In this document: one piece after another, positions 4,765-64,000 of the stretch | How the letters are laid out: every line of letters begins with the position of its first letter | How positions within the stretch are numbered: the stretch's first letter is position 1 | Assembly: GCA_903870015.1 (NCBI GenBank) | Contig: CAIQBE010000006.1 | Coordinates: 12,468-76,467 of the forward strand | Direction: 5' to 3' | Source: an uncultured Thiotrichales bacterium | GTDB taxonomy: Bacteria > Pseudomonadota > Gammaproteobacteria > Francisellales > CACEW01 | DNA: 64,000 bases | The notes under the pieces: model-generated | What the model was told of the DNA's origin: nothing | Seen by the model: the letters and a program-made list of their open reading frames with translations, nothing else | Database searches by the model: none | Position numbers and translations under genes: made by a program

Positions 4765-4769
4765 AGCCA

Positions 4770-4824
4770 CACCCTAAGTTTTTTCTTATGATATTTCAAG
4801 ATCACTTGAAGCACAAGTAGTTTT
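4770..4824 (-). promoter_or_regulatory. sigma70-type promoter and RBS of dotI-icmS (copy 1 of a 55-bp module)
   Basis: TTGTGC-N17-TATCAT then AGGGTG; 45/55 identical to 12556-12610. Confidence 0.7.
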
Positions 4825-4832
4825 ATAACAAC

Positions 4833-5882: not shown

Positions 5883-5939
5883 AATCAATCCTATATTTTT
5901 TAACTGTTTAATCTCAAAAAATATCACCCAACTTAATCA

Positions 5940-6833: not shown

Positions 6834-6863
6834 TTTACTCTCTCCTTTTACGTAAGTTCAAAA

Positions 6864-7373
6864 TTATACATCACTACAAAAAGCCGACACGGCCGCCAAC
6901 GTTTCCTCAGGACTTAAATTAGCGGATTCTAAGGCTGCAAAAACCTCTTTAGCAAAATCCACATCCTTCGCAGTCACCCCAGCCCCAGTTGCATACAAAA
7001 GCGCATCAATATTGTCCGCATTTTGATCGCGGGCCGCATCACCTTTAAACCAATCCCGTACACGCTGCAGCAAAGCCTCAAAACCTGCTTGCGGGCCATA
7101 AAAAGCCTTTGCAAAGTAAGGATAAATCTTTTGCTCCCAAAACGTGGTCGCCATACCAATAAAACCACCATTATAGCCCTTAAGGTTTGCTAAATCATCA
7201 AGCTTACCTTGGGTAAGGGATGGGAGATTATGATAAGCTCTAAGCCGAGCTTTATACATCAGCGTGTTTTCATCCTCAAGAGAAGAAGCTGCGGCTTTTT
7301 CAGCACGTGACAAAACCGACACCCCCTCATTATCACCTGAGGAAACTAGGGCTACACCATCTCTATTATCCAT
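6864..7373 (-). CDS. hypothetical protein inside the dot/icm cluster
   Basis: 169-aa ORF with its own TTGTGC-N17-TATAAT promoter and AAGGG RBS. Confidence 0.7.
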   Translation of the reverse strand: MDNRDGVALVSSGDNEGVSVLSRAEKAAASSLEDENTLMYKARLRAYHNLPSLTQGKLDDLANLKGYNGGFIGMATTFWEQKIYPYFAKAFYGPQAGFEALLQRVRDWFKGDAARDQNADNIDALLYATGAGVTAKDVDFAKEVFAALESANLSPEETLAAVSAFCSDV

Positions 7374-7399
7374 AAAAACCCTTATTTTTTATCATGCAC

Positions 7400-7428
7400 A
7401 TTATACTATTTTTTTGAATTTTGCACAA
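7400..7428 (-). promoter_or_regulatory. sigma70-type promoter upstream of the 169-aa ORF
   Basis: TTGTGC (7428-7423), 17-nt spacer, TATAAT (7405-7400). Confidence 0.6.
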
Positions 7429-8767: not shown

Positions 8768-8804
8768 ACACACCCCTATCTTTCGGTTATTCATCTCTAA
8801 ACAC

Positions 8805-12500: not shown

Positions 12501-12550
12501 TTACTCCCCCTCCGTGATAATTCTTTTTCAGTTTTTGCATCTATTATCAT
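12497..12550 (-). other. 17-codon leader ORF (MIIDAKTEKELSRRGSK) overlapping the dotA start
   Basis: AGGGTG-5nt-ATG at 12550; its TGA overlaps the dotA ATG (ATGA). Confidence 0.4.
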
Positions 12551-12555
12551 AATTT

Positions 12556-12610
12556 CACCCTATATTTTTTCTTATCGTATTTCAATACAATTTCCAGCAC
12601 AAGTAGTTTT
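12556..12610 (-). promoter_or_regulatory. sigma70-type promoter of dotA-icmX (copy 2 of a 55-bp module)
   Basis: TTGTGC-N17-TACGAT then AGGGTG; 45/55 identical to 4770-4824. Confidence 0.7.
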
Positions 12611-12857
12611 CGCTCATCGCTTTATTTAACTGCGAACAGAGGCAATAATGCTTGCCAGATACCCCTTAAAAATTCTTAATTTTAACCACACATATTATAC
12701 TATTTTTTTAGATTTTATTAAATACTTTGGGGACGTATCTTTAGTAACAAGCCATCAGCTTGAACGCACCCTGCAACTATTTATGTAAGCTTTTGATTTT
12801 AAGGGCCTATCTTAAAGACCCAAGCACTACCCCCCCGACAATTTCCTGGTTTTGTAA

Positions 12858-13292
12858 CTAAATATCACCCTTCTTCTTTGATAATTCTTTGAGCGTCTCT
12901 TCTTTCCATTCCTTAAAAGTACAGCCCAATTTGCGTTTTTTAACCTGAATATACCAAAAATGATAACGAAAACATAACGCACTGATAAACAGACAAAATA
13001 GAAATATGATGACTGACTGTTCCCACATCATATGTAGCAAGGCATAAAAAAAATACAAAACACCCAGCACAAAAATAGAACCAAACAAGATCACCAAATT
13101 CCTAAACTCTCGCTCCCTTTTTTCCAAAAACGCTGCTGGTACATAAAACATTTTACCCGTAGGCTCAATTTTCTGAGTATTGTAATCATAAAAGCCTTTA
13201 GCAATCTCCTTAATATCAACATAATTATTAGTTAATTCTTTAACCCCCAAAACACGCTTCACGCCGTTTTTAGTTTTTGTAAATATTTTCAT
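12858..13292 (-). CDS. icmV: Dot/Icm protein IcmV
   Basis: Two TMs then FRYHFWY.Q.K.RKLGCTF.EW signature; upstream of dotA. Confidence 0.92.
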   Translation of the reverse strand: MKIFTKTKNGVKRVLGVKELTNNYVDIKEIAKGFYDYNTQKIEPTGKMFYVPAAFLEKREREFRNLVILFGSIFVLGVLYFFYALLHMMWEQSVIIFLFCLFISALCFRYHFWYIQVKKRKLGCTFKEWKEETLKELSKKKGDI

Positions 13293-13305
13293 AATCTCCC
13301 CTCTT

Positions 13306-15603
13306 TTATGCTGCTAACTGTGTAAATTTATTTAATAGCTCGCTTAAGTTTGCATTTTTCGTTGGCAAACAGCCCGCATAACTCGTTTGCTTTTCTAACT
13401 CATCAATAATGTCTAAAGACTCATCTTTTGCAAGACTCTCGCTCTTGCCTAACATAATATTTAAGCGCTTCACTACTTCAAATAATTTTTCTTTGGTCAA
13501 GATACTGGGCAAAAGCGTCGCCACTTCAATATCAAAAAATTTACTCGCCAAACGTTCATCCACCAGAACATGCATAAAGATCGAAGCATTATTCGATTGA
13601 TCACCAAAACTCATGACCTCTTCTTCAACACGCCCTTCAATAAATCTTTGTATCTCCTTAAGCAACAGGGGCTTATCTTTTCTTGTCTTCTCTTGTTTAA
13701 AGATACTAAACAAATCTTTCAAGGGATCGGTGTTAGGGTTAATGACATAATCCCGAAGATTAGTATTAGCCTTACGCAAAGATTTAACCATATTAGCACT
13801 ATGATCTGAAGGGGCTTTGACTTTTAAAAATTGATTGAGCTTAATCCGCGCAACTTTAGGAGGATTAGCGTAAAAAAACTTGGCACGTACAATCGTGGAT
13901 TTGAAAAAGATATGGCCCTCGCCTTCACGCTGATCTTTTAAGTCCAGCAAATCAATTCGATGACGCTTATCAAGCGTGGCTTCCATACTATCTTTATAAC
14001 TAAGAGCGCCACTTGCCCCCTGCTTGTTAAAGCTGCGCGCCACCGTCACATAAGCCTCACCTGCCGTCTCTTGGAAAAACTTCCAGGTTTCTTGAGGATC
14101 TTCTAATTTCATACACACTTTAACGTTGGTATTCGCACAAATAGATGCTGCTTCTTCTTTGGATGCTTTTTGGAACGCGGGTAAATCTTGGCCTGCGAAA
14201 ATAACCGAAAATCCTAAAGAACGCGCCTGGGCCGGCACCACCGCAAAGCCTTTAACTGCATAATAACCATATTCGTCTAACACGCATAAATACGGCGTTT
14301 TAGAATTAGTAGGTTTACGCTCAATCACATCACGATAATCACCCTCAACCTGGCTACCCAAACCACTGGCCAACATTGCCTTTAATGAGGCAATAATTAA
14401 TTTACCCAAGTTGGATAACTCTTCCGGAGATTTTTCAAGCGCAGGTAATAAAACCACCAAAATACGGCGGTTCAAAACCACATCATAAAAGTCTACTTCG
14501 GCCAAATTAGTCCGAATAATATGACCATAAACGTCAGCCAAAGATCCGAAGATACGCGTTAATTGCATAGTAATATAACCATGCTGTTCATAGGCCTTAC
14601 CACTTTGCTTACCTTTTTCGCTTTTTTGATAACCGGGCAAGGTTGCCAAATAATTATCAAGCGGATCACGAACATCAAACGGTAAAGCCTCAGGCATAAT
14701 GGTAATATTATTGCGCTGATCAATGACTTTACTATCATAAAGCAACTCTTCTAAAACATCCAAAGTAAAATATTTACGAATGACACTCGCATCCAAGAGT
14801 AAATAGCCCCGATCGCGCATCCACACCAAGGGACGCATTAACGCTTCAATAAAAGAAATCGCACGGCCTTTCCACATGTCACCATCACCACTACCCGCAC
14901 TACCACTGTCCATCATGCTGACAACAAGTTGTGATAACATGCTGGAGGAACCCATAGCAAAAGGATTCATGGTATTGGACAATACTTTTTCTTGTGGGCC
15001 AATAATGTCGACAGCACCAGTCATATAGTTAACGAGGAGCAAATCATCTTCACGCCCCATCGAACGAACCATGGAAAAGACTTTGGCAAATAAAGAGTTA
15101 TCCCCTTTACCATCCACATAAATAAAACCACTGCCTTGGGCCAAAGCATTAAAAGCAACCGACAATAAGGCTTCGGTTTTACCAGAACCTGTTGATCCAA
15201 AAATTAATGCATGGGTACGCATATCTGAATTATTAAACCATAACTGCTCTTTGGTTAAAATATCATTACCAAAATAATAGATTCCCGCAGCAGGCCCCGC
15301 TGCTTTACTGCCAGGCTTAGGATCATTGGGATCAAGCAAACCCGAAAAAATAGGTAACCGAAATGGCAAACGTATAAAACCAAACATGCTATACCAAAAC
15401 ATAATAATTGCCAGGAAAAAAAACACATCTGCAACCACTGGCAACAAATAAATACCAGGAATCAATGCGGCAATCAAAATGGCAACCCCATGACGGCTTT
15501 TGACTAAATCACGAACTTGCTGCCAAAATGGCCGTAAATCACGCATGGCATCATGCGTATGAAACTCCTGAGCTTTGGTAATCCCACGAAATTGCCGAGC
15601 CAT
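13306..15603 (-). CDS. dotL: type IVB coupling protein DotL/IcmO
   Basis: THALIFGSTGSGKTE Walker A, YVDGKGD, MWKGRAI, LDEYGYYAVKGFAVVPAQARSLGFS. Confidence 0.96.
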   Translation of the reverse strand: MARQFRGITKAQEFHTHDAMRDLRPFWQQVRDLVKSRHGVAILIAALIPGIYLLPVVADVFFFLAIIMFWYSMFGFIRLPFRLPIFSGLLDPNDPKPGSKAAGPAAGIYYFGNDILTKEQLWFNNSDMRTHALIFGSTGSGKTEALLSVAFNALAQGSGFIYVDGKGDNSLFAKVFSMVRSMGREDDLLLVNYMTGAVDIIGPQEKVLSNTMNPFAMGSSSMLSQLVVSMMDSGSAGSGDGDMWKGRAISFIEALMRPLVWMRDRGYLLLDASVIRKYFTLDVLEELLYDSKVIDQRNNITIMPEALPFDVRDPLDNYLATLPGYQKSEKGKQSGKAYEQHGYITMQLTRIFGSLADVYGHIIRTNLAEVDFYDVVLNRRILVVLLPALEKSPEELSNLGKLIIASLKAMLASGLGSQVEGDYRDVIERKPTNSKTPYLCVLDEYGYYAVKGFAVVPAQARSLGFSVIFAGQDLPAFQKASKEEAASICANTNVKVCMKLEDPQETWKFFQETAGEAYVTVARSFNKQGASGALSYKDSMEATLDKRHRIDLLDLKDQREGEGHIFFKSTIVRAKFFYANPPKVARIKLNQFLKVKAPSDHSANMVKSLRKANTNLRDYVINPNTDPLKDLFSIFKQEKTRKDKPLLLKEIQRFIEGRVEEEVMSFGDQSNNASIFMHVLVDERLASKFFDIEVATLLPSILTKEKLFEVVKRLNIMLGKSESLAKDESLDIIDELEKQTSYAGCLPTKNANLSELLNKFTQLAA

Positions 15604-15604
15604 T

Positions 15605-15862
15605 CTATTTACGCCTTATAATTATTTTGGTTGAGCCTGTGACAAAATTTCTAATAATTCTTACAGCCGCAATCAAACTAACATGATAATAATTCAAAAT
15701 ACTCAAAAACCCCAAGGAAACTACCACCATCCCAAAAGTGTACCAACTAGGACGCACTAAACACAAAAGAATGATAAAAGAACAACGCGCATCCACCGAG
15801 AAAAATACCGGAGTCAAGGCAGAATCACGCCAATGCGCATAAATATCTGGTTGACTAGCCAT
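15605..15862 (-). CDS. icmT: Dot/Icm protein IcmT
   Basis: AHWRDSA...FF.VDAR signature, hydrophobic, 85 aa. Confidence 0.92.
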   Translation of the reverse strand: MASQPDIYAHWRDSALTPVFFSVDARCSFIILLCLVRPSWYTFGMVVVSLGFLSILNYYHVSLIAAVRIIRNFVTGSTKIIIRRK

Positions 15863-16973
15863 GTCTTTGCTCCAAAAGTTGAAAACGACGATAAGCCTCT
15901 TCCGTAATCAACCCTTGATTAAATTTATTTTCAACATCTCTTAAAATAGGCTGACCATATTGCGCGATAAGCTCACGAATTTTTGGCACCAACTGCTCAA
16001 GCTCTGTCTTTGCCAACGTATCTCTAACATCATGATCAAAAACTAAAAACTCTCTCACCGCTGTTCTTTTGCCATCTGGCCTGGGCAACAAAGCTTGCCA
16101 GACAATCACTTTGACCGTTTCGATTAAGTCAAATAAGCGTGCATCACGCTCTTCACTAGGAAATATAGTCACCATACGGCGCATGGTATCGGCAACACCA
16201 TTACTATGAACCGTTGTATAAACAGGATGCCCTGTCAATGCAGCATCAATCACCGCTTCAATGGTTTCTTGATCACGCGCCTCTCCCACTAAAATTAGGC
16301 CCGGTTTACGACGCAAAGCATTACGCACCCCCGCAGCAAAACTAGGTAAATTACGCGGAATCTCCATTTGGCTTACAATTGCTGAAGTCTTTTGAACTTT
16401 ATCATAAACATATTCAATAGGCGCTTCATAAGTAAGAACTTTAATATTCGCCTCGGGATCATGACAAATATCTGCCAAAATCGATGCCAGCAAGGTACTT
16501 TTACCCGATCCTGTCGCACCACTAACCACCATGACACCTTGGGACAGCCTAATATATTCGAGTAAATTAGCCTCTAGATTTAAATCTTTTAATAAAGGCG
16601 GCTCACTCGAAATAACCCGCAAAGTAATCTGCAAGCCTTCATATCCTTCAAAATAACAAGCGGTAATATTGACACGAAAACGAAATTCCACTTTGTCTGA
16701 CTTAACGCGATAATGGGTATCAATATCATTACCCGAAAAAATCATGGCCGTAGCATTAGCACCATAAATATGCTTAATAACATCTGAAAGCTCCTGCATC
16801 GTCAAACGACGCTGCGTCATTTGAATCTGACGCCCATGAATTTCGGCAAACACAACCTCACCCGTTTGGAGAGTAATATCTGAAGCCTTATGCTCACAAC
16901 AAAATAAGAGTAACCGATCAAAATGCGGCGCCACAAAATAATTAGGCTCATTCGGCAGCAAATACTGAGCCAT
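15855..16973 (-). CDS. dotB: Dot/Icm ATPase DotB
   Basis: ASDITLQT, GATGSGKST, TYEAPIEYVYD, RNALRRKP..ILVGEARD, TGHPVYTTVH. Confidence 0.96.
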   Translation of the reverse strand: MAQYLLPNEPNYFVAPHFDRLLLFCCEHKASDITLQTGEVVFAEIHGRQIQMTQRRLTMQELSDVIKHIYGANATAMIFSGNDIDTHYRVKSDKVEFRFRVNITACYFEGYEGLQITLRVISSEPPLLKDLNLEANLLEYIRLSQGVMVVSGATGSGKSTLLASILADICHDPEANIKVLTYEAPIEYVYDKVQKTSAIVSQMEIPRNLPSFAAGVRNALRRKPGLILVGEARDQETIEAVIDAALTGHPVYTTVHSNGVADTMRRMVTIFPSEERDARLFDLIETVKVIVWQALLPRPDGKRTAVREFLVFDHDVRDTLAKTELEQLVPKIRELIAQYGQPILRDVENKFNQGLITEEAYRRFQLLEQRHG

Positions 16974-17806
16974 TATTGCGCCCCTTGAGCAGAGAGATTA
17001 CCTAAATTACCTTGTGCTCCGGGCTCAGGAGCATTGGTACTAATAGGAGCTGTTTCCCAAAGCTTACCCTTCAACTGTAATTGTGGTTGTTCGGTAATTT
17101 GCATGGTCTTATCATCAATAACCATATTATTACCACTACCTGTAATACCTTGTTCTTGTTGTGTTAAATGATATGGGCTTACCATATTTTGAGCCAACAA
17201 CTCTTTGTACAAAATCATGCCATTATAATCACGCACTAAACGAGAAAGGTTAATCTGATAAATAGAGACTGCTTGATTAATCCCCTCAGCCCAACCTAAA
17301 GCAACATTAGCCTTCCACAATTGACGCTCAGCATCATTTTGGGGCAATAAAACTTGATTAGGTAGTTCAGGAGGTGGATAAGACATCCAAATATAATCAT
17401 GCCATGTTGGTGGTGCCGTCACAAAACGCACAGGAGCAAGAATACGATACGTTGTCCCTGCAATACGAATGGTATCACCAGTTCCATTAATATTAACCTC
17501 ATTTTGCGCGCGATCTAAAACAGGAGGCAAAACATTATGTTGATACAATACTTGGTTAAAATCAAAAATTCTATTCAGCAAAACACCTTCAGACTCTAAA
17601 ACCTGGTCAATCTGAATTGATTCATAAGACAATGCCGCCTGCATTCCCAAAGCCTGCGCAGCCTCTTGAATCGCTTGTTGGCGAATCGAGCCTAAGCTGG
17701 AAGCCGCGTGCGTAGCATAATAACCAGATCCAGTAGATAAGCCTTGCAAATCAGTTAAACTATACTGACCTGCAGGTAATGCAGTGGGCGGTGTCAAAAC
17801 CATCAT
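16973..17806 (-). CDS. dotC: Dot/Icm core protein DotC
   Basis: IR..A..E.A..LG.QAAL, L..IFDF, VLPPVL, Y.I....RFVTAPPTW.DY, RL.RDY.GMILY..LL.QNMVS. Confidence 0.93.
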   Translation of the reverse strand: MMVLTPPTALPAGQYSLTDLQGLSTGSGYYATHAASSLGSIRQQAIQEAAQALGMQAALSYESIQIDQVLESEGVLLNRIFDFNQVLYQHNVLPPVLDRAQNEVNINGTGDTIRIAGTTYRILAPVRFVTAPPTWHDYIWMSYPPPELPNQVLLPQNDAERQLWKANVALGWAEGINQAVSIYQINLSRLVRDYNGMILYKELLAQNMVSPYHLTQQEQGITGSGNNMVIDDKTMQITEQPQLQLKGKLWETAPISTNAPEPGAQGNLGNLSAQGAQ

Positions 17807-18297
17807 GATCCGGGATACCTCAGGCTAATTACTTTTTCATCTTGATAAATTAAAATTTGTGCATTCAAACCCGCTTGAATATCCGCATTACGGATAATAG
17901 TTAACGCCGAAACAGGATTATCCGTATCATCAATATTCACTAAAATGGGACTAAACGGCGCTTTACCAAAGGCTTGGAATTGATACCCCGTAAGGCTGGC
18001 CATTTGGCGCAATAAAGGCTCAATGGGGCCATTCCATTTCAAAGTAACTACTACATTTAAAGCAGGGTCATTGATATTGGCCAAAGGTAAGGTATTATTT
18101 TTTTGGAAACGCGTTTTTTCAATAGAAGACAACTCAGCCAAAGACGCCTGAGTCTGTGCCGCTGACTGCACCAACGAAGCTCTGACCTGATTATTAATTT
18201 GCTCTTGAGTCATAGTATTAGGGGCAGGTGGATTTTTAGCACACGCCGCTAACAGAGCTGCGCTTAAAACAACACTCATTGCACACAAACGTTTCAT
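17803..18297 (-). CDS. dotD: Dot/Icm lipoprotein DotD
   Basis: Lipobox LAAC, L..L..IEK, W.GPIEPL, G..P..PILV, C-terminal ISLRY; heads dotDCB. Confidence 0.93.
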   Translation of the reverse strand: MKRLCAMSVVLSAALLAACAKNPPAPNTMTQEQINNQVRASLVQSAAQTQASLAELSSIEKTRFQKNNTLPLANINDPALNVVVTLKWNGPIEPLLRQMASLTGYQFQAFGKAPFSPILVNIDDTDNPVSALTIIRNADIQAGLNAQILIYQDEKVISLRYPGS

Positions 18298-18325
18298 ACA
18301 ACTCTCCCTCAATCCGATCAACTTA

Positions 18326-50564: not shown

Positions 50565-51689
50565 CTATAGCTTCGGCGCCGAATCAGCAACCCCCGCACC
50601 CACGGCCGCACCAACCTCCATGAAAGCAAGAGAAGCAACCGACGCAGCAGGCACTACAGGAGGTGGTGGCAACTGGATATTTGGGGTAACGCTTCCTGCG
50701 AACGAGTGCAGCTCCTGAATAATATACACGCAATTTCTGGCTGCCGCAGCCTTCTGAATAGTCTTAAAAAGCCGTGCCGCGTCAACAAAATATAAACCTT
50801 CAGAATGACCGGGATTTGCAAGATTTTGAGCAAAAGGATAAGAATAAGTATCAACCCCCAAAAGATCTAGAACACAATTTAGGGTTTTTGCTACCCACGT
50901 ATTGCGAGGACAGGTCAATAGATGTAAAATCCTGCTATGACCAGAAGGCACAACGTGATAATAAGATAATTTATGCAACTCAGCCAAAAAGTTGTAATGT
51001 TCATATTTAAATGATTGCAATGCAACGCCCCGCTCCTTTAAGTAATCGACACAGCTAACCCCCTTCTTCAAACCAGCTTTATAATCTTCGGACAAAGCTA
51101 ACGCCATAAAAAATGGCTCTTTACGTATCTCAGGATTAAATTCTAAATAACTCGTTAAAAGATCAAATTGACGAGCTTTGAGAAACTCCTCATGCAAAGG
51201 CTTACCATTATAAGTACAAAGAAATCGAGCTAATTCTGATATGCGAGCAGAAGCACTGGGATTACTTTGATTATGTCCAAGTCCAAGTTTAATAACCCAG
51301 GGAATAAATGAGGGTGTCAATAAAGCGTCAGAATGAGGATTAGCTAAAATTCTTAAACGCAAAGTTTGCATACAATCACGAGACCATATGATGCGACGTA
51401 AGCGATCAGCGGCCATACCTTGTACATCTCGTAAATTACCCTCTGGTGCCATAGAAGCTACAGACACCCCTACAGAAACAGGATCAGGAGATTCAGACGA
51501 AGATGATGCACTAGATGCAGATAGACCTAAACGACTCCGAAAACTTGCAAGACTCGCAGGAATAGCGTCTAGAGGAAGCCGATGATCAAGTAAGCTCTTA
51601 ACAAGATCTATTTGATCAGGCGTGTAAGTAGTCGCAGGCGTTGATAATGGTGCTGATGCATGATGCATGATGCATGATGCATGATGCAT
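50565..51689 (-). CDS. hypothetical protein, paralogue of 48363-49013, starting in a heptamer repeat
   Basis: 374-aa ORF, AGGGG RBS 8 nt before ATG 51689, Ser-rich linker, Ala/Gly-rich tail. Confidence 0.75.
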   Translation of the reverse strand: MHHASCIMHHASAPLSTPATTYTPDQIDLVKSLLDHRLPLDAIPASLASFRSRLGLSASSASSSSESPDPVSVGVSVASMAPEGNLRDVQGMAADRLRRIIWSRDCMQTLRLRILANPHSDALLTPSFIPWVIKLGLGHNQSNPSASARISELARFLCTYNGKPLHEEFLKARQFDLLTSYLEFNPEIRKEPFFMALALSEDYKAGLKKGVSCVDYLKERGVALQSFKYEHYNFLAELHKLSYYHVVPSGHSRILHLLTCPRNTWVAKTLNCVLDLLGVDTYSYPFAQNLANPGHSEGLYFVDAARLFKTIQKAAAARNCVYIIQELHSFAGSVTPNIQLPPPPVVPAASVASLAFMEVGAAVGAGVADSAPKL

Positions 51690-51692
51690 GAT
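51654..51692. repeat. tandem heptamer (TGATGCA)5 + TGAT
   Basis: Read directly from the sequence; covers the first codons of the minus-strand ORF. Confidence 0.95.
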
Positions 51693-51838
51693 ATATACCC
51701 CTAATGATTAGTTAACGTTAAACCCACGACAAATCATATATTAATATTTTATTAATGTCAGAAATTATTAAATAATCATTTAAATATATAAACATCCTTG
51801 CGACAGCCATAATACCGCAATACCAAGAATACCCACCC

Positions 51839-53854
51839 TTAATCTACCTGTGCCATCTTAAGATCTGCGGGACTATCGACAAAAATAACCTCTTTTAAAT
51901 AGGCGCCCTGCCAATGGCTGCGGGGCAATAGCACTTGGGTAAACGTAACGCCTTCCAGCTCAGCATCGGTAAACTTCGCCTCTGATAAATCTGTATGCAT
52001 GACGCTAACGCCAATCCAACGCGCCGCACGCCATTCCGATTTAGCAAAATTAGACTCTTTCAAAATGGTATTTTTAAAATTACTTTGCAAAAAGTTAGCC
52101 GCGAGCACCTGGCAATCAGAAAAACAACAATCATCAAAACGGGTATTCGCCCCACTAACATCGAGTTTATCTGCCATCATCTTACTAAAATGAACATGAT
52201 CAAAAACCACATTATTAAAATACACATCTTTAAGTTGTGCATAAGGCAAATCTAAATATCGCCAAAAACCATCGATAAATTGACTTGAAAAGATCAAAAC
52301 ATTAACAGCCTTATTTTTAACCCAATCAGATTGAATAAACACATTTTCACGCAAACAGGCATGCGCAAAATTAACCTCAAAAAACACAACGCTCACAAAT
52401 TGCGACGAAGCAATATGTGCAAAATCAAATCTTGTCAAATTAAATTCAGATTTATTAAAAACGCACTGCTCAATTTTAGACTGCATTAATTTAGCAGAAC
52501 ATAAATTGGAATGATTAAAATTAACACATTGCAATTTTGCATTCACAAAAAAAGTATTAGACAAATCTGCTCCAGAAAAATCAATTCGCAATAAAGTTTT
52601 TTCAGAAAAATCAACACCCATCAAATCATAGCCACTAAAATCCAAATCATGAAGCACCGATAACTCTTGCAGCATAAGGCGTTGTGAGGATGATAAAGAT
52701 TTAAGCATTGGCTTAGTATTAGATTTTATTAAAGCAGGTGACCTCTGCAAGGCCCGTGTTTTTTCGATCGCCGCCAAAGAAGATTTTGCATCTATGCCTG
52801 GCAATAATCCAGCATGCGCAAATTGATAAAGATGCCGATCAACCCCCGTTAAATCTGCAAAAGACCGATAATAATACTGAATAGATTCCGACTTATTTAC
52901 ATCCTCCAGCGACAGCATAAGCATATCAATCGCATTAGCACTCCAGCCCTCAACCTCAAATTTAGATCTGTATGTTATAACACCAATATTATGATTTGGC
53001 AAAAACCATAACGTATCTGCGCGCACATTTAATTCATGAAAACGCCCCGTCGCCGTTCGCAAAAACACGCGTAAATTTAAATTAGGCAAATGACCCGAAA
53101 TCGCATTAAATCCCATACCTTCAAGACGAAAAATCGCATTAGGCTTAAACGCTTCCTCCTGACATTGATCTAATGATGCCTGCTGAAAAAACAAAGGATC
53201 AAGATCCTCAGGCAAAGCCGGATAAGCCTTGGCCCAAGTCTTTGCATTGACATAGCGCCAACGCAAAGGCGCCAGCATATTCAAAGGCGCGAACGCCGCA
53301 GGCAAAACCTCACCTTGCTTAGGAAAAGGATGCGTGAGCAAATAATCTGGATGCTCAATCAAAGGCAAGGGCACACGCAAAGATTCATCATAAAGCTGGC
53401 TTTTATTTTTAATCGCACCCATACCATCTGGATTAAGCGCACCCCCATAAGCACCCTGCCAACTCAATGACACATTGTGATAAACAGGCTCTGGCGCATA
53501 AGGCAAAAACTGATTAAGCTTCGGCGCCGGATACCAATAACGCTGTGGGAATACATAAAGGGTTTTATCAATACTCGCAACCTGGACACGCACATAAGGC
53601 TGCGCAGGAAGCTGATCAGGCACAACAAAATCCCCCAAGACCAAGACCTCACTTAACGCTTTCGGCAAATGCTCATCTAAAGGCTGATCACCCGCAACTA
53701 CTTTCCAAATTTTCAGCCATTCATGTTCGGTAATTAAAGTTGCGCTGTCATCTAACTTAAACGCAATAGACCCTGTGATAATTTTGATAAATTTATTTTG
53801 ATAAAACTGGGTTTGATTCCCATGAATAATATAATCGGATTTAAGCACTTCCAT
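51839..53854 (-). CDS. DUF2169 T6SS accessory protein with pentapeptide repeats (TagA/TagB-like)
   Basis: PK..SEVLV.G, DKTL.VF..R.W, W..AYGG..NP.G.G, P.D.D..FFQ.A..DQ, DTLWFLP; C-terminal DFSGADLS-type repeats. Confidence 0.9.
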   Translation of the reverse strand: MEVLKSDYIIHGNQTQFYQNKFIKIITGSIAFKLDDSATLITEHEWLKIWKVVAGDQPLDEHLPKALSEVLVLGDFVVPDQLPAQPYVRVQVASIDKTLYVFPQRYWYPAPKLNQFLPYAPEPVYHNVSLSWQGAYGGALNPDGMGAIKNKSQLYDESLRVPLPLIEHPDYLLTHPFPKQGEVLPAAFAPLNMLAPLRWRYVNAKTWAKAYPALPEDLDPLFFQQASLDQCQEEAFKPNAIFRLEGMGFNAISGHLPNLNLRVFLRTATGRFHELNVRADTLWFLPNHNIGVITYRSKFEVEGWSANAIDMLMLSLEDVNKSESIQYYYRSFADLTGVDRHLYQFAHAGLLPGIDAKSSLAAIEKTRALQRSPALIKSNTKPMLKSLSSSQRLMLQELSVLHDLDFSGYDLMGVDFSEKTLLRIDFSGADLSNTFFVNAKLQCVNFNHSNLCSAKLMQSKIEQCVFNKSEFNLTRFDFAHIASSQFVSVVFFEVNFAHACLRENVFIQSDWVKNKAVNVLIFSSQFIDGFWRYLDLPYAQLKDVYFNNVVFDHVHFSKMMADKLDVSGANTRFDDCCFSDCQVLAANFLQSNFKNTILKESNFAKSEWRAARWIGVSVMHTDLSEAKFTDAELEGVTFTQVLLPRSHWQGAYLKEVIFVDSPADLKMAQVD

Positions 53855-53866
53855 GAAAAATCCGCC

Positions 53867-54316
53867 CTAACTATTTAGCGTAAAATTCTGCGCGTTGATA
53901 TGATAGCGATCGGCTTTTTGGATCAGCACGGGTGTTTCTAAAATCTTTGCAGTCGTAGCTACTTCATACGCAACATCTGCTTTCACACTCAAATGCCCAA
54001 TGTCCTGAGTCATGGCATCAGCATGCACATGGAAGGAATTAGTGGCAAGCGTAAGCTTTGCCATATCAAGCATCTGTGCCTCAGGCTGGCGCTGCATAAC
54101 AATATGCGTTAGATAAAATTGCCGGGACACATTCAGGATAATCACCGTATCCCCTGGCATCGGCTGGAGCAAACAACTGGCACAACGCCACGCTAACAAA
54201 CGCTGACCTTCTACAACAATTTGATAATATCGATCCTGCATGGGCGCATCTACGACGCCGATAAAATAAGGATCAGAAAATTCCGCCCTGGGAAAAAAAA
54301 GCGTTTTTGCCATCAT
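53867..54316 (-). CDS. DUF3540 protein (TagC-like)
   Basis: A.RCASCLLQP..GD.V signature; beta-rich tail ...HINAQNFTLN. Confidence 0.8.
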   Translation of the reverse strand: MMAKTLFFPRAEFSDPYFIGVVDAPMQDRYYQIVVEGQRLLAWRCASCLLQPMPGDTVIILNVSRQFYLTHIVMQRQPEAQMLDMAKLTLATNSFHVHADAMTQDIGHLSVKADVAYEVATTAKILETPVLIQKADRYHINAQNFTLNS

Positions 54317-54750
54317 ACACACCCCGGCAACTTGGCAAAACGCGCCCCCGAGGAATTGGCATTACCACCATGATTAACATTATAAACACCCTGATTAGCG
54401 GTTGCGCTGACCATCGGCGCAATCGGACAATTACCGGTATTCAAATATTTTTTTGTCGCACTTGTAAGCACACACTTGCCATGCACCTGCATAATTTTAG
54501 AATAATCACTCACAACCTGCCCCGGACCATGAATAGTACCAATGATTGCGCCTGGGGCATTGGGCACTGGAATTGAAGCCGGATGAATGGTATCGGTCGT
54601 ATCAATCGCATGACCCTCACAAGTAAAATCAGCATGACCCAAAATAATTTCCTGAGGACTAGATACAAAGCCAGGAACCACAGCTCCATTAACAATCACC
54701 GGCTGAATCGAAGCATACAAACCATTTTTCTGGGTATTAAGCAAAGCCAT
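54313..54750 (-). CDS. divergent DUF4150 PAAR-like spike tip protein (TagD-like)
   Basis: NTQ..G start, G...GT..GP, S....V.GK, N..NCP; operon with DUF3540 and DUF2169. Confidence 0.7.
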   Translation of the reverse strand: MALLNTQKNGLYASIQPVIVNGAVVPGFVSSPQEIILGHADFTCEGHAIDTTDTIHPASIPVPNAPGAIIGTIHGPGQVVSDYSKIMQVHGKCVLTSATKKYLNTGNCPIAPMVSATANQGVYNVNHGGNANSSGARFAKLPGCV

Positions 54751-54778
54751 GAGAAATTACAAATGATTAACTTATAGA

Positions 54779-54808
54779 CATTATATAAAATTTGATCAAC
54801 AATGCAAG
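54779..54808 (-). promoter_or_regulatory. promoter of the DUF4150-DUF3540-DUF2169 operon
   Basis: TTGCAT-N16-TATAAT; 22/30 identical to 60460-60489. Confidence 0.6.
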
Positions 54809-54864
54809 CTGTTTTTTTAACAACCAATATTTTTATCTTAAAGCCCTCAGCCACCCCCTCTACG

Positions 54865-54987
54865 GCGTCATCCTTCGAATTTTTCGAAGAAAAATTGCGG
54901 AGGACCCAATTGCATGCAGAATCGCTGACCCCCTTAAATGTGGCTACGCCACAGGCTGGATCCTGTGGAGCACCCACAGGACGATGC
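54865..54987. repeat. composite REP/RPE-like palindromic element
   Basis: Ends GCGTCATCCT...AGGACGATGC; internal hairpin TCCTGTGG-AGCAC-CCACAGGA. Confidence 0.5.
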
Positions 54988-54994
54988 TCTAATA

Positions 54995-56068
54995 TTACCT
55001 CAAAGTTCTCAACCAATCTTTGATTTGATCAATCTTCATAAACGCCCGCATATCAGACTCAAGCCCACGCAGCTGGCGTTTTAACTGGGCTACTTCATGA
55101 TTTAACAAACCCAAGACTTGATCGGGCGCCCTTCGAGCATCAACAGGCATTTGCATCTGTGCCACAAAAGGCATCGTAACACCCTCAACCTGCTTTTTTA
55201 AATCGGCCAATTGCTGGCGCAAAATTTTATTATAATTTTGCAAACGCTCATCATTCATGGCCTGCAGCGCTGCCTGATCGATTTGAGCAATTTCTACTTG
55301 CAACTCAAACAGCGTTAACAAATCACCTGCTTCATAAGCTGCATTCACCCGCTGCATCAACGCATTTTTACGTTCACGCTCAAGCGGATCTTGCTCACGA
55401 TCTGGATGCAAATCTTGGACAAGCTTGCGAAACACCTCGCGCAAAGAGCGCTGCATTTGTGCCTCAGCATCTTCCGCCGCCAAAACCTTAGCTGATTTCT
55501 TTTTATGAAGCTTACGCTCATCTTGAGCCGCCAATTCTTCCTCAGCCAATGCCTTCATCTTTTTGCGCATAAATGCAAGCACATCCTCTGGCGAGTCGAA
55601 TTGTTCCTCATCACTAAATTCATAATCAAAATCCTGGGAAAATCTGGCCTTCAACAGCTCCACTTGCTCTTGATTTTCTTCATCATAATCTTGCGGATTA
55701 TGGCGATTATAAATTTCCTTCAGCTCATCCAGCATATCGAACTGCAGCAACTCTTCAGCGACATCACAAATCACCGCAGAAAGCTTAACCTTTTCATTTT
55801 TAGTAAAATGCTGCTGCAAATAAAGATGATCCATTTGCCGCAACCACGCCAATTTATGCTCGCGAATTTGATCAAGCAAAGGCTTTAAATCACGAAGATA
55901 TTTTTGCTGATACATCGGAATGACGGCATTCCAAGCCTCTAAACGCTCACGCTCACGTTGGATCTTTTGAATCAACTGATTAAACGTTTTTTGCCCGGGT
56001 GACAAATTAGCACGCTCTTGTTGCGTTGGCATAATTTGCACTTCAAAAATCTTTGCCGTCATGACCAT
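54995..56068 (-). CDS. J-domain-containing coiled-coil protein
   Basis: REVFRKLVQDLHPDRE...LMQRVNAAY..GDL with HPD motif. Confidence 0.88.
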   Translation of the reverse strand: MVMTAKIFEVQIMPTQQERANLSPGQKTFNQLIQKIQRERERLEAWNAVIPMYQQKYLRDLKPLLDQIREHKLAWLRQMDHLYLQQHFTKNEKVKLSAVICDVAEELLQFDMLDELKEIYNRHNPQDYDEENQEQVELLKARFSQDFDYEFSDEEQFDSPEDVLAFMRKKMKALAEEELAAQDERKLHKKKSAKVLAAEDAEAQMQRSLREVFRKLVQDLHPDREQDPLERERKNALMQRVNAAYEAGDLLTLFELQVEIAQIDQAALQAMNDERLQNYNKILRQQLADLKKQVEGVTMPFVAQMQMPVDARRAPDQVLGLLNHEVAQLKRQLRGLESDMRAFMKIDQIKDWLRTLR

Positions 56069-59087: not shown

Positions 59088-60143
59088 CTTAGGATAATCA
59101 TTATACCCATGATCCCCTCCCACATAAAAAGTACTGGGATCGGGTGTATTCAAAGGCGCACCTAGTAACAAGCGTTTAGGCAAATCCGGATTCGCGATAA
59201 ACAGCTTGCCAAAACTAACAGCGTCAGCGTGGCCATCAATAATCAATTGCTCCGCGTCTTCCGGGGTCAGACCTTGGTTAGCAATGTAAACGCCGTTACC
59301 AAATGCCTGCTTCAACTGATCGCCAATATAGCCATCGCCCTGACCGGCACGAGCAAACACAAAGGCAATCTGGCGCTGACCCAGCGCTCTCATGACATAG
59401 CTAAAAGTAGCAAGCGGATCAGAATCGCCCATATCATGGGAATCACCACGAGGGGCAAGATGCACGCCCACACGCTGACTGCCCCACACAGAAATCACCG
59501 CATCAACAACTTCAAGTAACAAGCGTGCGCGATTCTCAATGCTGCCACCATATTGGTCTTGGCGCTTGTTGGTACTGTCCTGTAAAAATTGATCGAACAA
59601 ATAGCCATTGGCTGCATGAAGCTCAACACCATCAAAGCCTGCTTTTTTAGCATTCTCAGCCGCTTGACGAAAAGCCTCAACAACCCCAGGAATCTCATCA
59701 AGATTTAAAGCTCGAGGGGTCACATATGGCTTTTCAGGCCGCACTAAACTCACATGACCTTTGGGCGCAATCGCACTGGGCGCCACTGGCAACTGCCCAC
59801 CAAGAAACATTGGATCAGACATCCTCCCCACATGCCACAATTGTAGGAAAATGCGCCCACCTTCTTGATGCACAGCCTCAGTCACCAATTTCCATCCTTG
59901 CACTTGCGCATCAGACCAAATACCTGGCGTATCGGCATAACCGACCCCCATAGGACAAACCGAAGTCGCCTCAGTAACAATCAAACCAGCACTCGCGCGA
60001 TCACGATAATATTGCGCCATCATCGCATTGGGAAGACGCTCGACTCCGGCTCTTGCACGCGTCAAGGGCGCCATAATAATTCGGTTGGGCAAGGTTAAGT
60101 CACCGAGTTGTAACGCAGTAAAAAGCACTGAAGTATTTTGCAT
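59076..60143 (-). CDS. old yellow enzyme / alkene reductase (NemA-like)
   Basis: [51 protein letters not shown]. Confidence 0.95.
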
Positions 60144-60269
60144 GATGATCCAAGATGATTTTTGAGGGGGAAATTATACCATTCGCAAATAATTATGACT
60201 AATTGCGCCAAACTCGTAACCTGAATGAATCTCAAAAAAAAGCTGGCTTGCCGAGCCGAAGCCCAAAGC

Positions 60270-60434
60270 ATGGCCATCGGCTACCGCGTCCGCTCACACC
60301 GCGGCACACAATTTCGCAAATGAGCGACAGAACAACTCAAAACCTACCTGACCCAAGGCTTCCTATTAGATGATGAGCGCTTCAAGCGCGGAGAGGATGA
60401 CGGCTATTTGAAAAACCTATTAGCACGCATTCGT
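60270..60434 (+). pseudogene. RhuM-family fragment
   Basis: AIGYRVRSHRGTQFRK*ATEQLKTYLTQGFLLDDERFK...LLARIR; conserved Trp replaced by TGA at 60321. Confidence 0.8.
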
Positions 60435-60459
60435 GTAACAATTAGACATCAATCCACCA

Positions 60460-60489
60460 CTTGCATTACTGTACAAAAAGCATATAATG
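60460..60489 (+). promoter_or_regulatory. promoter of the hydrolase-lipoprotein pair
   Basis: TTGCAT-N16-TATAAT; 22/30 identical to 54779-54808 (minus strand). Confidence 0.6.
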
Positions 60490-60527
60490 CTTAATAAACA
60501 CTCATCAAAAAATAGCTATGAATAGCC

Positions 60528-63434
60528 ATGAATGCCCCAAATGCTCCCGCCTATAGCAAACTCATCAATAACGACACCCTCACTGAAGCTCACAATATTC
60601 CCACCACCAAAAACATTCTGGCGCATGAAGATACTTGGCAAACGCATAATCCAGAAACCGCAAGCCTTGCTGACACTCATCTCTTGGCCGTTAAAAGCGC
60701 GATCAGTCAGAATGCTGGCGCTTATGTCAATCAGCATGATCTTAGCCAGCATGATAATTATTTAGACTATGCTGCCACGCGCGATAAAGGCTTTAGTGCT
60801 GGGCCAAACACCGATGTCACCTGGAATAAAACCCATGAAGGCAATCACCACACTATGCATGCGGGCACCATGACGCAAACGCGTAAGGTACAAAATGACA
60901 CCTGCGCGATTCACGCACCCGACATTCACTACCAATATAGCCAACGCGATACCACCATGAGTGGCAACACCTTCAGCCACTCAAGCGTTCATGCCGCCAT
61001 CACCACAGGCAATGAACAATCATTTATCAACAAAGCCCTTGAAAGTGCCCCGACCCATCAAGAAACCCTGGGCCAGAGCAATGAGCGTTATGGCACGCAA
61101 AACTTTAATTACAATACAATGAGCACCATCGCCAGTCAATTCACTCATAATGGCCCACTTGTGATCAGGGCTAAGCAGTTTGATTTAGCCAATTTGACCG
61201 CGAACACGATTAATCCACATCCCCAAAACCCAGGGCCTGCCACTAACTCAAGGACTAGCATCCAAATTGTGATTGGCGACCAAAGCAATATTCAAAGCCC
61301 AACTACTACCCCTAAACTTCATGATTATTTACAAGGCATTAGCGCTAATTTTGTTGTGATCAAGCAAGATGGCTCAGAATTAGCTTTTGGTGGTGCTGCG
61401 GCAAGCCTAAGTGATTCCGTGTATGCGATCGCTCAGGTGCTTCCCAATTCAACGAATCAAAGCAACTCTTTTGATATTAAAGCGGTGCAAGTGACTTTAT
61501 CGCATAATGGCTGCAACGACACTGATACGAATCTTGCTGTCAACATCATTGCCCAAAATACTCAAGCGATCTTTCCAACAAATACGCTTACCATCCCCCA
61601 AAGTACTTGGGAGCAAAATAAGCACGTCGATCAACAGGGCAATGTGGCTTACATTCTCTATGTAAATGTGCTGGCTCCGGCTCTAATATTTAACTTTAGA
61701 CATGATTATTGGGAGGATCAACTCACGGGAGATGATAAGGATAATTACGCCGTGCTCAAACACTATTTTAACAAAGCGCCTTATACAGGCGTCGTTCGCA
61801 CCACGCCACTTTGCGCACAAGAGCTCGATTTCTTTGCAGCCATGGGCAAGAATGTGACCCTATTCATCCACGGCTATAATGTTGGCTTTGGTACATGGCC
61901 CATGGGTTTAAGCCCCACCGAAACCACCATTGGGGATCAAAAAACTTTTACCCTGACACCCGCAAACCCCTCGGTTTCATTATGCCGTGATGATGATTAC
62001 TGCAAAACGGCTTACCCACAAGTGCCATCGAGCGCTTTAAATCTGCTAAATCTTGAGCAAAGATATGGCAGCAATGCGCATAAATGGCTGTTGTGCATGG
62101 AGCACTCTCTTAACAAAGCCGCGGGCTTTGATGGGCAAGATTACTCTAAATATACCCGCTTGATTGGTATTTCTTGGCAAGGGGATCCTGCCAGCCCCTT
62201 GGATTATAGTGTTGCCAATAGCACCACGCTCTTCCCTGCTGAAAAAATCTTTGCGCTTGTGCAACAATTGCATCAGCATGGCATCAAAATTAACCTCATG
62301 GCCCACTCCTTAGGCAATGGCGTATTAATGCGGGTCTTGGATCAATGTGGCGCCAATGGCATTCAGATTGACCATGCCTTTATGTGGGATGCCGCCATTC
62401 CCAATAGTGTTTTTGATGATAATTCCCAGAAAAAGTTTATGCCCCTGATGTTAAGCAATCCCATGACCGGCAAGGCACAACAAATCCCCTACGAATTTAA
62501 CTTCCCCAATGCCGCCAAAGGCGTCAAGTTAGTTTCAATCCTTTATAGCCAACAAGACACCGTGCTAGGCGCCATTCCCTCAGGCGATGGCACCTGGAAT
62601 GTCCTACATCAAACCACCGATGACCCAGGCGCAGGTCTTGCCCTTGCCCTCACCGCAGGCGGCACTCAAACTCTAAGCGATGTTTTAGCCGTCGGTGGTG
62701 TTAAGCGCCCATTAAATAGCGTTTACTATATCTCGAACCTATTCACCTATCCACTTTCATTCTTCACGAGCGGCGCTCAAAATCTTTTAGAGAATTACTA
62801 TCAAAGCTTTTGTGATACCTATGCTCAAGCCCCCGCCACTACTCCATACTGGCAAGATAAAAATGGCACCATCATTAATTTCGCCACAGATCTTAAGACA
62901 CAAAGAGCCATGATCGCATCCAAATACCCAAGATTATTTAATCTTATCTCCAATGGTGCACTCATAGGCGATAAAGATTCTACCGCCACCAAAGCCAGTT
63001 ATAATGATTTAAGCGATAAAGAAAAGGCCACCGCTGCAGCGCTTGATGCCTTGCACCTCCTAACGCCACTTGCTGGCAAAGCATTCGCCACAGGCGACTC
63101 ACTCACCCCACAAGGCGAACATGCCAATGATGTGGCAACGATTATTCTGTCAGGGCTGCTATGTATGGAAGCGCAACCGGATCAGGCGCTTGGGTATATG
63201 GGGATTTCAGCCTCACAACCATCGTACAGTTTAATCAATGCTGGCAAAATATTTCAATCAGGCCAAACTAAACCAGGGACGCAGCCTACGGATACAGATC
63301 ACTACTTATGCATGGATCATAATGCGATGCTCTTTCCAACGCCGGATTTTATGACCTATATCTACAAGGGAGTTTTGCTTAATGCACAGACTAATATAAA
63401 ATTTCAATTCTTTGGCAAATGGAAGCCTGCATGA
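60528..63434 (+). CDS. alpha/beta-hydrolase (DUF900/Tle-like) toxin with a needle-like N-terminal extension
   Basis: LFIHGYN, MAHSLGN nucleophile elbow, candidate D677 and H931; Thr/His/Asn-rich beta N-terminus ending VIRAKQFDLAN. Confidence 0.8.
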   Translation: MNAPNAPAYSKLINNDTLTEAHNIPTTKNILAHEDTWQTHNPETASLADTHLLAVKSAISQNAGAYVNQHDLSQHDNYLDYAATRDKGFSAGPNTDVTWNKTHEGNHHTMHAGTMTQTRKVQNDTCAIHAPDIHYQYSQRDTTMSGNTFSHSSVHAAITTGNEQSFINKALESAPTHQETLGQSNERYGTQNFNYNTMSTIASQFTHNGPLVIRAKQFDLANLTANTINPHPQNPGPATNSRTSIQIVIGDQSNIQSPTTTPKLHDYLQGISANFVVIKQDGSELAFGGAAASLSDSVYAIAQVLPNSTNQSNSFDIKAVQVTLSHNGCNDTDTNLAVNIIAQNTQAIFPTNTLTIPQSTWEQNKHVDQQGNVAYILYVNVLAPALIFNFRHDYWEDQLTGDDKDNYAVLKHYFNKAPYTGVVRTTPLCAQELDFFAAMGKNVTLFIHGYNVGFGTWPMGLSPTETTIGDQKTFTLTPANPSVSLCRDDDYCKTAYPQVPSSALNLLNLEQRYGSNAHKWLLCMEHSLNKAAGFDGQDYSKYTRLIGISWQGDPASPLDYSVANSTTLFPAEKIFALVQQLHQHGIKINLMAHSLGNGVLMRVLDQCGANGIQIDHAFMWDAAIPNSVFDDNSQKKFMPLMLSNPMTGKAQQIPYEFNFPNAAKGVKLVSILYSQQDTVLGAIPSGDGTWNVLHQTTDDPGAGLALALTAGGTQTLSDVLAVGGVKRPLNSVYYISNLFTYPLSFFTSGAQNLLENYYQSFCDTYAQAPATTPYWQDKNGTIINFATDLKTQRAMIASKYPRLFNLISNGALIGDKDSTATKASYNDLSDKEKATAAALDALHLLTPLAGKAFATGDSLTPQGEHANDVATIILSGLLCMEAQPDQALGYMGISASQPSYSLINAGKIFQSGQTKPGTQPTDTDHYLCMDHNAMLFPTPDFMTYIYKGVLLNAQTNIKFQFFGKWKPA

Positions 63435-64000
63435 AGAAGCGAATTCAGAAAATCATTTTAACTGGCTTTTCGTGCTTATCCCTAACTGCTTGCGGGGACC
63501 CTAATCGAGGCCCTTCAGATTTAAACATGGTCATCAGCGCTTCTAGTAATGGACACTATGCCATTGCTACGAACACCAACCAGCAAGCTATTCTATGGAA
63601 TTTACAAAAACATAGTTATAAAATTATTTGGAAAGACGCGAATATTTATAGCGCTTACTTCATTAAAAATACTGATGACCTCATGTTTCAAGATGATAAG
63701 ACTAATGATGTTTACATTGAAGATGTTAATGGAAATATAATCAAAAAATTTAATCCAGGCATTGCTACCTTCGGAGAACTTGCAACGTCAGATTTAAAAA
63801 ATTACTTTGCCTCTGATCGTTGGTTTCAGTTGCATAAAACCAACTTAACCACAGATCAGACCAAACAATTTTATTACTACTATTGCGGACCTAATTACAA
63901 GGATGGTGTCATTCCACCTGCTGGCATGCCATATGCCTGCGATGAATTTATCGGAACGGGACAACTATTCAACTTAAGCTTAGCACCTGATAATAGCAAA
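63431..64000 (+). CDS. lipoprotein with beta-propeller-like sequence, candidate immunity protein (runs off window)
   Basis: ATGA overlap with the hydrolase stop; MKKRIQKIILTGFSCLSLTAC lipobox; SASSNGHYAI...AILWNL WD40-like blade; frame open to window end. Confidence 0.8.
   Translation, partial: MKKRIQKIILTGFSCLSLTACGDPNRGPSDLNMVISASSNGHYAIATNTNQQAILWNLQKHSYKIIWKDANIYSAYFIKNTDDLMFQDDKTNDVYIEDVNGNIIKKFNPGIATFGELATSDLKNYFASDRWFQLHKTNLTTDQTKQFYYYYCGPNYKDGVIPPAGMPYACDEFIGTGQLFNLSLAPDNSK

Follow-up and report, generated by a model that had tools for sequence, protein, structure and literature searches.

Polymorphic type VI secretion system (T6SS) effectors, paired with immunity proteins, are a known kind of system, and several described arrangements come close to the gene pair reported here, which lies at the end of a 64,000-nucleotide stretch of DNA from an uncultured Thiotrichales bacterium (the window, whose numbering is used for all positions). 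The first gene of the pair (60528-63434, forward strand) encodes a 968-residue protein, P0001, and the second encodes a lipoprotein; judged by their sequences, the two are likely to be a lipase effector of the T6SS and the lipoprotein that confers immunity to it. Pairs of type VI lipase effectors and immunity proteins of the Tle/Tli kind (Tle1-Tle5) were reportedly described by Russell and colleagues in 2013. The new pair resembles them in having an alpha/beta hydrolase, a nucleophile motif of the G-x-S-x-G type (AHSLG), no signal peptide on the hydrolase, a downstream lipoprotein predicted to face the periplasm, and relatives that are fused to or associated with VgrG. It differs from them in that the hydrolase is of the DUF900 family and the immunity candidate is a WD40-like beta-propeller.

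Specialised ('evolved') VgrGs offer a further comparison. From residue 226 onwards, P0001 is homologous to the C-terminal extension of the VgrG fusions P0005, P0006, P0007, G011:C3 and G001:C76 (G numbers denote genomes and C numbers their contigs; G000 is the host genome, and the window lies on its contig C6). Unlike these proteins, P0001 has no gp27 hub and no detectable OB-fold or VgrG shaft, and begins instead with module B (residues 1-221; 60528-61190, forward strand), a rare N-terminal segment without annotation or detectable VgrG similarity, which is a candidate T6SS carrier or spike-docking module. This layout recalls MIX, FIX, RIX and PIX, domains at the N-terminus that mark or load polymorphic T6SS effectors, whose genes often lie away from the T6SS cluster: here, too, a conserved N-terminal domain is combined with varied C-terminal toxins, and the genes are often distant from the cluster. 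In contrast to those domains, module B, together with a companion termed module A, has no Pfam model, is also found fused behind a complete VgrG, and was found only in this order; a sample of 398 genomes from the remaining orders of the class contained no A-B module, and the single match there concerned a toxin-like C-terminal region only.

Hub-less proteins of the VgrG kind have also been described. TvpC, a DUF3540 protein, is presented in the available part of Monlezun et al. (EMBO J 2026, PMC13373197) as a predicted hub-less VgrG mimic, a trimer with an OB-fold as well as a beta-prism that serves as an assembly placeholder. It is like the present case in being hub-less and VgrG-like, and the window itself holds an operon with DUF3540 and with DUF2169 plus pentapeptide repeats, as in the class III Tvp systems; it is unlike it in carrying no toxin and in having a predicted OB-fold and beta-prism, and neither similarity to module B nor synteny was established. 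The short VgrG of Francisella (type ii T6SS) is a spike protein that lacks a gp27-like domain according to the table in PMC8632748, in agreement with the original prediction made from the sequence of the window, which had called it needle-only. That protein is, however, the structural spike of a distinct type of T6SS, with its hub coming from PdpA, whereas the present host has a canonical T6SS with four full-length VgrGs. Within the literature searched, three elements appear to be new: toxins of the DUF900 type, an immunity protein of the beta-propeller kind, and the carrier A-B in the four architectures seen.

A DUF900 hydrolase and a candidate immunity lipoprotein

The gene of P0001 is an intact open reading frame (ORF) of 968 codons, with an in-frame stop 3 codons 5' of its ATG. 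Behind module B follow a Pro-rich linker (residues 222-242; 61191-61253), which reads INPHPQNPGPATNS and forms the junction where homology to VgrG-fused toxins begins, a beta domain (residues 243-420; 61254-61787) and a DUF900-type alpha/beta hydrolase (residues 421-968; 61788-63434; Pfam PF05990), all on the forward strand. This is the order that had been predicted, and the two predicted motifs are in place as well, HGYN at residues 448-451 and AHSLG at 592-596. The DUF900 match (E-value (E) 2.4e-6; 27.6 bits against a gathering cut-off of 20.5) is partial, with residues 440-623 covering profile positions 18-122 of 232. Ser594, Asp677 and His931 are identical in all 14 aligned homologues of the hydrolase part and form the candidate catalytic triad; Ile447-His448-Gly449, which probably belongs to the oxyanion loop, is the same in 13 of 13 homologues. 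A Pfam scan of P0001 at E<=0.01 returned DUF900 alone and reported none of DUF2235, Lipase_3 and DUF3274, the family-specific domains of Tle1-Tle3. No solved structure matched P0001 in a sequence search of the PDB, and no relative was found when assembled genome contigs were searched with it. DUF900 is listed as being of unknown function in the part consulted of a 2024 survey, while the accessible text of a 2026 preprint describes a bactericidal archaeal phospholipase, most homologues of which carry DUF900. In the accessible portions of the literature that mentions both DUF900 and type VI secretion, no DUF900 T6SS effector is described.

At least five homologues of the toxin are fused to a VgrG of the Phage_GPD family. 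The 1296-residue P0005 has such a VgrG at its N-terminus, and its C-terminal 710 residues (585-1294) align in BLASTP with residues 226-965 of P0001 at 47% identity; the other VgrG-DUF900 fusions are P0006, P0007, G011:C3 (1588 residues) and G001:C76 (1332 residues). A toxin fragment on G019:C18 starts with a VgrG end. The toxin-family profile, which includes these N-terminal VgrG parts, matches solved VgrG structures with E down to 5.8e-26; its PDB matches are VgrG structures only and arise from the VgrG parts of its rows. The beta domain, for which Pfam gave no match in P0001, always accompanies the hydrolase in homologues, whether these are VgrG-fused, A-B-fused or carrier-less. Two homologues consist of the beta domain and DUF900 without any carrier, one of 601 residues (L014 1459-3264, from G007:C19) and one of 657 residues (L016 649-2622, from G014:C81).

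The lipoprotein gene (63431-64000, forward strand, running off the window) overlaps the toxin gene by ATGA, with its ATG at 63431-63433 and the TGA of P0001 at 63432-63434. From this ATG the protein starts MKKRIQKIILTGFSCLSLTAC, in which a lipobox (SLTAC) was recognized by eye; the full ORF, counted from an upstream ATG at 63419, comprises 404 residues and extends past the window. Both the overlap and the lipobox are thus as had been noted from the sequence, and the WD40-like blades noted with them correspond to weak WD40 and beta-propeller matches. Searches with tblastn located lipoprotein homologues directly 3' of a toxin and on the same strand at G003:C50 (45% identity), G011:C3 (38%), G019:C18 (51%) and G011:C11 (30%), so that toxin and downstream lipoprotein recur together in 4 of the 11 other toxin loci fetched. 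The predicted analogy with Tle/Tli, a lipase toxin coupled to a lipoprotein, has therefore gained ground: the catalytic residues are kept, the lipoprotein stands downstream elsewhere, and relatives are fused to VgrG.

The host also has the machinery to which such a pair would belong. Its genome (1.79 Mb in 50 contigs) carries on contig C40 a canonical T6SS cluster with TssA, B, C, E, F, G, J, K and L, ClpV, VgrG and a DUF4280 PAAR-like gene, and there are four VgrG (Phage_GPD) genes in all, on C12, C23, C40 and C42. We favour the T6SS effector-immunity reading because relatives of the toxin extend full-length VgrGs, because a lipoprotein lies downstream in 4 of 11 loci, and because the genome has a full T6SS cluster with four VgrGs. 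On this reading, P0001, which has no signal peptide, would be synthesized in the cytoplasm, mounted on the T6SS spike and fired into the periplasm of neighbouring Gram-negative cells, where it would hydrolyse membrane lipids by means of Ser594-Asp677-His931. The co-translated lipoprotein, a WD40-like beta-propeller on the outer face of the membrane in the producer's periplasm, would block toxin arriving from sister cells. Module B would be the delivery part, a lineage-restricted carrier that in relatives is covalently linked, by way of module A, to the C-terminus of a complete VgrG or heads free polymorphic toxins, and that in the present protein would most probably attach the toxin to one of the four VgrG spikes by non-covalent docking. 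We put the probability of this whole reading, an effector-immunity pair including loading by module B, at about 0.55.

If it is true, DUF900 hydrolases can be counted among the lipase toxins of the T6SS, their antidote being a beta-propeller lipoprotein, and the few N-terminal markers available for finding T6SS effectors in genomes are increased by a new carrier domain. A toxin cassette that occurs in four carrier states (VgrG-fused, A-B-fused, B-fused and bare) would then provide a natural series for learning what the minimal needs of spike loading are. It would also place an active kit for bacterial warfare in a small-genome, Dot/Icm-bearing lake bacterium, of a kind usually thought to be an intracellular specialist.

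A rare N-terminal family with differing C-terminal regions

A phmmer (HMMER) search with residues 1-240 of P0001 against 1.84 billion representative proteins gave 8 matches, all spanning residues ~1-225; one is a fragment of P0001 itself, and the 7 other proteins matched module B with E from 1e-85 to 9e-8. Module B has no Pfam match, and the A-B profile has no match in the PDB. In 6 of the 7 other proteins module B is preceded by module A (~200 residues). P0009, P0010, P0013 and P0014 continue after A-B into differing C-terminal regions, that of P0014 showing a weak, below-cut-off match to a cell-wall hydrolase (E 0.022), whereas P0011 and P0012 consist of A-B only. The original prediction that the N-terminus is a swappable unit fits well with these proteins, in which module B precedes other C-terminal domains.

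P0008 consists of module B only; its start coincides with that of P0001, and over the module the two proteins are 61% identical. P0003, a 966-residue protein that is 86% identical overall, likewise shares the start position of P0001 and is without module A; between the two, identity is 88.2% in module B and 86.9% in the hydrolase and falls to 71.4% in the linker, the least conserved part. All 14 family-invariant columns of module B are kept in the proteins that lack module A. Other genomes add further architectures. G011:C11 encodes A-B-DUF900 (932 residues), followed by a beta-propeller protein, and on G063:C219 a complete VgrG is followed by A-B and then by more sequence in one uninterrupted ORF without N. 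G003:C102 has the same order, but a scaffold gap of 10 N sits at the junction, so that a single ORF is only probable there. We lean towards regarding residues 1-221 as the carrier domain of a new, narrowly distributed family that still mediates loading in this protein.

The family remained small in other searches. A word-indexed homologue search with the A-B alignment returned 3 members, all already known; searching assembled genome contigs with the family alignment returned only the known contig of the sister genus, and metagenome contigs yielded one locus disrupted by an insertion sequence (IS). Credible A or B matches occur in 7 genomes, a count from which G062 was left out for a weak match inside a histidine kinase. 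TssC is found in 6 of these 7 genomes against 48 of the 65 scored genomes of the order, a comparison that is not informative; nor are the genomes independent of one another.

Three loci deserve separate mention. In a metagenome contig (L037 157-4661), module A of an A-B-type gene close to P0010 is split by an IS21-type element with transposition genes of 506 and 277 codons. In the sister genome, ~100 bases after the A-B-only gene of P0011, a separate gene encodes an esterase or lipase of the Abhydrolase_3 family with a low-complexity N-terminus (L019 2268-3431, G001:C44; E 3e-37), and in that genome the carrier and the hydrolase may be encoded by two different genes. The last ~40 bases of the G063:C219 contig (the end of L031) translate as LSLIHISEPTR, which looks like a sequencing adapter, so that the final residues of the ORF are not of biological origin.

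Module B and the VgrG needle

Measured against the hydrolase part, module B (residues 1-221) is enriched in Thr (12.7% against 8.0%), Asn (10.0% against 5.7%) and His (7.2% against 2.2%), and the segment ends in PLVIRAKQFDLAN; in these points, the initial description of a Thr/His/Asn/Gln-rich N-terminus was accurate, and only the enrichment in Gln was not seen (6.3% against 5.9%). The likeness to a gp5/VgrG needle that had been proposed together with it could not be recovered from the sequence. In hhalign, modules A and B matched an alignment of nine VgrGs with a probability of 0.2-0.3% (0.3% being the higher value), the module B profile matched the VgrG shaft of G011 with a domain E of 0.022, and BLASTP with residues 1-291 of P0001 against the same VgrG gave E 0.44, at the positionally equivalent place. 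The proposal does hold as to position: module B ends exactly where relatives pass from the VgrG shaft to the toxin, and A-B covalently extends a complete VgrG in G063, as it probably does in G003. The low-confidence models of the module B region contain many beta-hairpins. In the ESM Atlas, beta-solenoid families are among the nearest neighbours of module B (model pLDDT 0.45; template modelling (TM) scores 0.40-0.44), and the neighbours of module A are Ig-like; with all scores <0.9 and TM <=0.44, both serve as leads only.

The hub-less start of P0001

The predicted lack of a gp27 hub agrees with the profile searches, as P0001 has no Phage_GPD match and none of the 4 matches in the whole genome lies on contig C6. 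Nor is there a frameshifted vgrG upstream, which had been named at the outset as the mark of simple truncation: apart from the Phage_GPD result, tblastn with the N-terminal 620 residues of P0005 recovered the linker alone on this contig, and no frame of 59900-60700 gave a match to the module A profile. In one lake-water study, contigs from 4 sequencing runs, 2 of which may be the source of this same DNA, cover the start of the gene with zero differences; contigs X1 and X2 run from 59000 and 59030 through the P0001 gene, and X3 and X4 bridge 60528. This agreement means that the hub-less 5' end is not an artefact of one assembly. Immediately 5' of the gene is a fragment of a RhuM-family pseudogene (60267-60446, forward strand; Pfam PF13310, E 4.5e-19, profile positions 30-88 of 252), 59 residues long and with an in-frame TGA stop.

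The VgrG of contig C12, an orphan of 582 residues (G000:C12:84012-86675; L035 4013-6676), shares 58.6% identity with residues 1-571 of the 1332-residue VgrG-DUF900 fusion of G001:C76, at a syntenic locus of the sister genome. It stops ~15 residues past the point where its relatives continue into toxin, and an integrase fragment comes next, at the contig end; the VgrG therefore appears to have lost its toxin head. The toxin of P0001 was considered as the missing C-terminal part and was rejected, being only 29% identical to the toxin of G001:C76, against 58.6% for the VgrG parts.

Alternative explanations

P0001 could be a 5'-truncated relic of an A-B-toxin or VgrG-A-B-toxin whose front was lost through mobile-DNA insertion and deletion, leaving a still active lipase and its immunity gene that can no longer be loaded onto a spike and are heading for decay or some other use. 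We consider this unlikely, although much around the gene fits it: module A stands in front of module B in 6 of the 7 other proteins and was not found in the host genome (best hmmsearch E 0.4, all six-frame ORFs of at least 50 residues), the RhuM fragment abuts the gene, and mobile elements strike the family elsewhere, as the IS21-type element in module A of L037 illustrates, while the C12 VgrG, next to an integrase fragment, breaks off at the point where its G001 relative (58.6% identical) runs on into toxin. Yet the ORF is intact over its 968 codons, and no remnant of module A or of a vgrG lies upstream in any frame. P0003 and P0008 keep the start position of P0001 and, because they do, the form without module A must be old. 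Conservation of module B equals that of the hydrolase and clearly exceeds that of the linker, and the module retains every family-invariant column; taken together, the shared start, this conservation and the invariant columns argue against a dead relic.

Another reading turns modules A and B into parts of a detachable spike extension, which would form the end of a VgrG in some genomes and a separate protein in others, assembling after translation onto a short VgrG; the B-only form would be the minimal plug-in and might fit the C12 VgrG. This is doubtful, and more doubtful still is its specific form, close to the original prediction, in which a trimer of module B makes a beta-prism-like shaft that stacks end-on onto a short, blunt VgrG such as the 582-residue C12 protein, so that an 'evolved VgrG' is rebuilt from two genes. 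The position of module B speaks for it, exactly at the shaft end of the fused relatives (homology to P0005 sets in at residue 226), and so do the continuation of a complete VgrG into A-B in G063, the C12 VgrG that is cut where relatives continue into toxin, the beta-hairpins and beta-solenoid neighbours of the low-confidence models (TM 0.40-0.44), which are a lead only, and the existence of a hub-less VgrG mimic, TvpC (DUF3540), predicted in the available part of PMC13373197 to be a trimer with an OB-fold as well as a beta-prism. On the other hand, no VgrG sequence similarity was detected in module B, its conserved residues show no obvious repeat period when the alignment is inspected by eye, and it is not directly continuous with the shaft, since module A intervenes in the fused forms. 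The tip of a VgrG is, moreover, normally occupied by a PAAR-type protein. Were the extension real, a toxin-bearing 'evolved VgrG' could be built from two genes, and toxin heads could be exchanged with the hub untouched. It is very improbable, finally, that P0001 is no T6SS substrate at all and is a host-directed lipase released through the Dot/Icm type IVB system or otherwise, next to a lipoprotein of unrelated role. The window does encode Dot/Icm components, and there are the carrier-less toxins, which occur in genomes without detected TssC and without a listed same-strand ORF of at least 90 residues just downstream. Against this, the closest toxin relatives are covalently fused to VgrG, and at 4 other loci, too, the toxin is accompanied by the lipoprotein. 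The C-terminal FG.W/Y motif of the toxin is kept in the VgrG-fused homologues too, and for that reason is best seen as part of the fold and not as a lineage-specific export signal.

Several observations nevertheless weigh against a T6SS effector-immunity pair that is loaded through module B. Because module A sits between VgrG and B, or at the N-terminus, in relatives, it may be the true docking part, and P0001, whose host genome yielded no module A, may then be undeliverable. The RhuM fragment means that the 5' boundary of the gene has been touched by mobile DNA. Simple scans of 59800-64000 found no plus-strand promoter-like site, and there is no strong Shine-Dalgarno sequence before the ATG of P0001. 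At 7 of the 11 other toxin loci, several of these being cut by contig ends, no homologue of the lipoprotein was detected; two of the seven, G007:C19 and G014:C81, were inspected, and no same-strand ORF of at least 90 residues is listed downstream of their toxins. These are the carrier-less toxins, and no TssC was found in either genome (G007 is 99% complete and G014 95%); the toxin unit is therefore not tied to a T6SS setting, and may serve another use in these two bacteria. Structure prediction, too, gives no help to a docking module: a single-sequence model of residues 1-430 reached a mean predicted local distance difference test (pLDDT) of 29.8, and a model of module B with a 12-row alignment a mean pLDDT of 43.2 and a predicted TM score (pTM) of 0.24, both too low to judge the fold.

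Neighbouring operon and other secretion systems

On the reverse strand of the window is an operon with a DUF2169 gene that also encodes pentapeptide repeats (51839-53854; Pfam E 5.7e-41), a DUF3540 gene (53867-54322; Pfam E 9.1e-8) and a 145-residue PAAR-like candidate, recognized by eye (54313-54750). The DUF2169/DUF3540 part (51839-54322) matches, in its gene content, the class III Tvp system (TvpAB, TvpC), known as TagAB/TagC in Burkholderia. The original prediction had placed a DUF4150 gene in this operon. No such gene could be confirmed, since the ORF at 54313-54750 has no Pfam match at E<=1 and the best DUF4150 (PF13665) match genome-wide has E 0.27, on another contig. Nor does any VgrG adjoin the operon in the genome-wide Phage_GPD search; by a published analysis, in the part of it available, DUF2169 strictly co-occurs with VgrG and DUF4150 genes. 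That the operon and the toxin gene form one split-spike system, as had also been suggested, finds no backing in synteny: a helicase, a helix-turn-helix protein and an oxidoreductase lie between them, the operon is on the opposite strand, and in both G011 and G001 the DUF2169 gene and the A-B genes are on different contigs. Within the operon region (50565-56068, reverse strand), the genes are flanked by ORFs of 357 and 374 codons without an assigned family.

Farther away in the window (4093-18321, reverse strand) are Dot/Icm type IVB genes, namely those of DotI/IcmL, DotD, a TraI-type DotC, a T2SSE-type (DotB-like) ATPase and a coupling protein. As these share a contig with the T6SS effector gene, both systems are present in one bacterium. 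Contig C22 (L039 4250-13151) bears a second, partial T6SS cluster with TssB, C, E, F and G; it ends at a phage-type integrase, after which comes an 809-residue protein with an OTU cysteine-protease domain. The fourth VgrG, on C42 (L036 6737-11071), has 1181 residues, with a long C-terminal extension that has no Pfam match, and is followed by a 256-residue protein to which no family was assigned; the two may represent a further specialised VgrG and the immunity protein that belongs to it.

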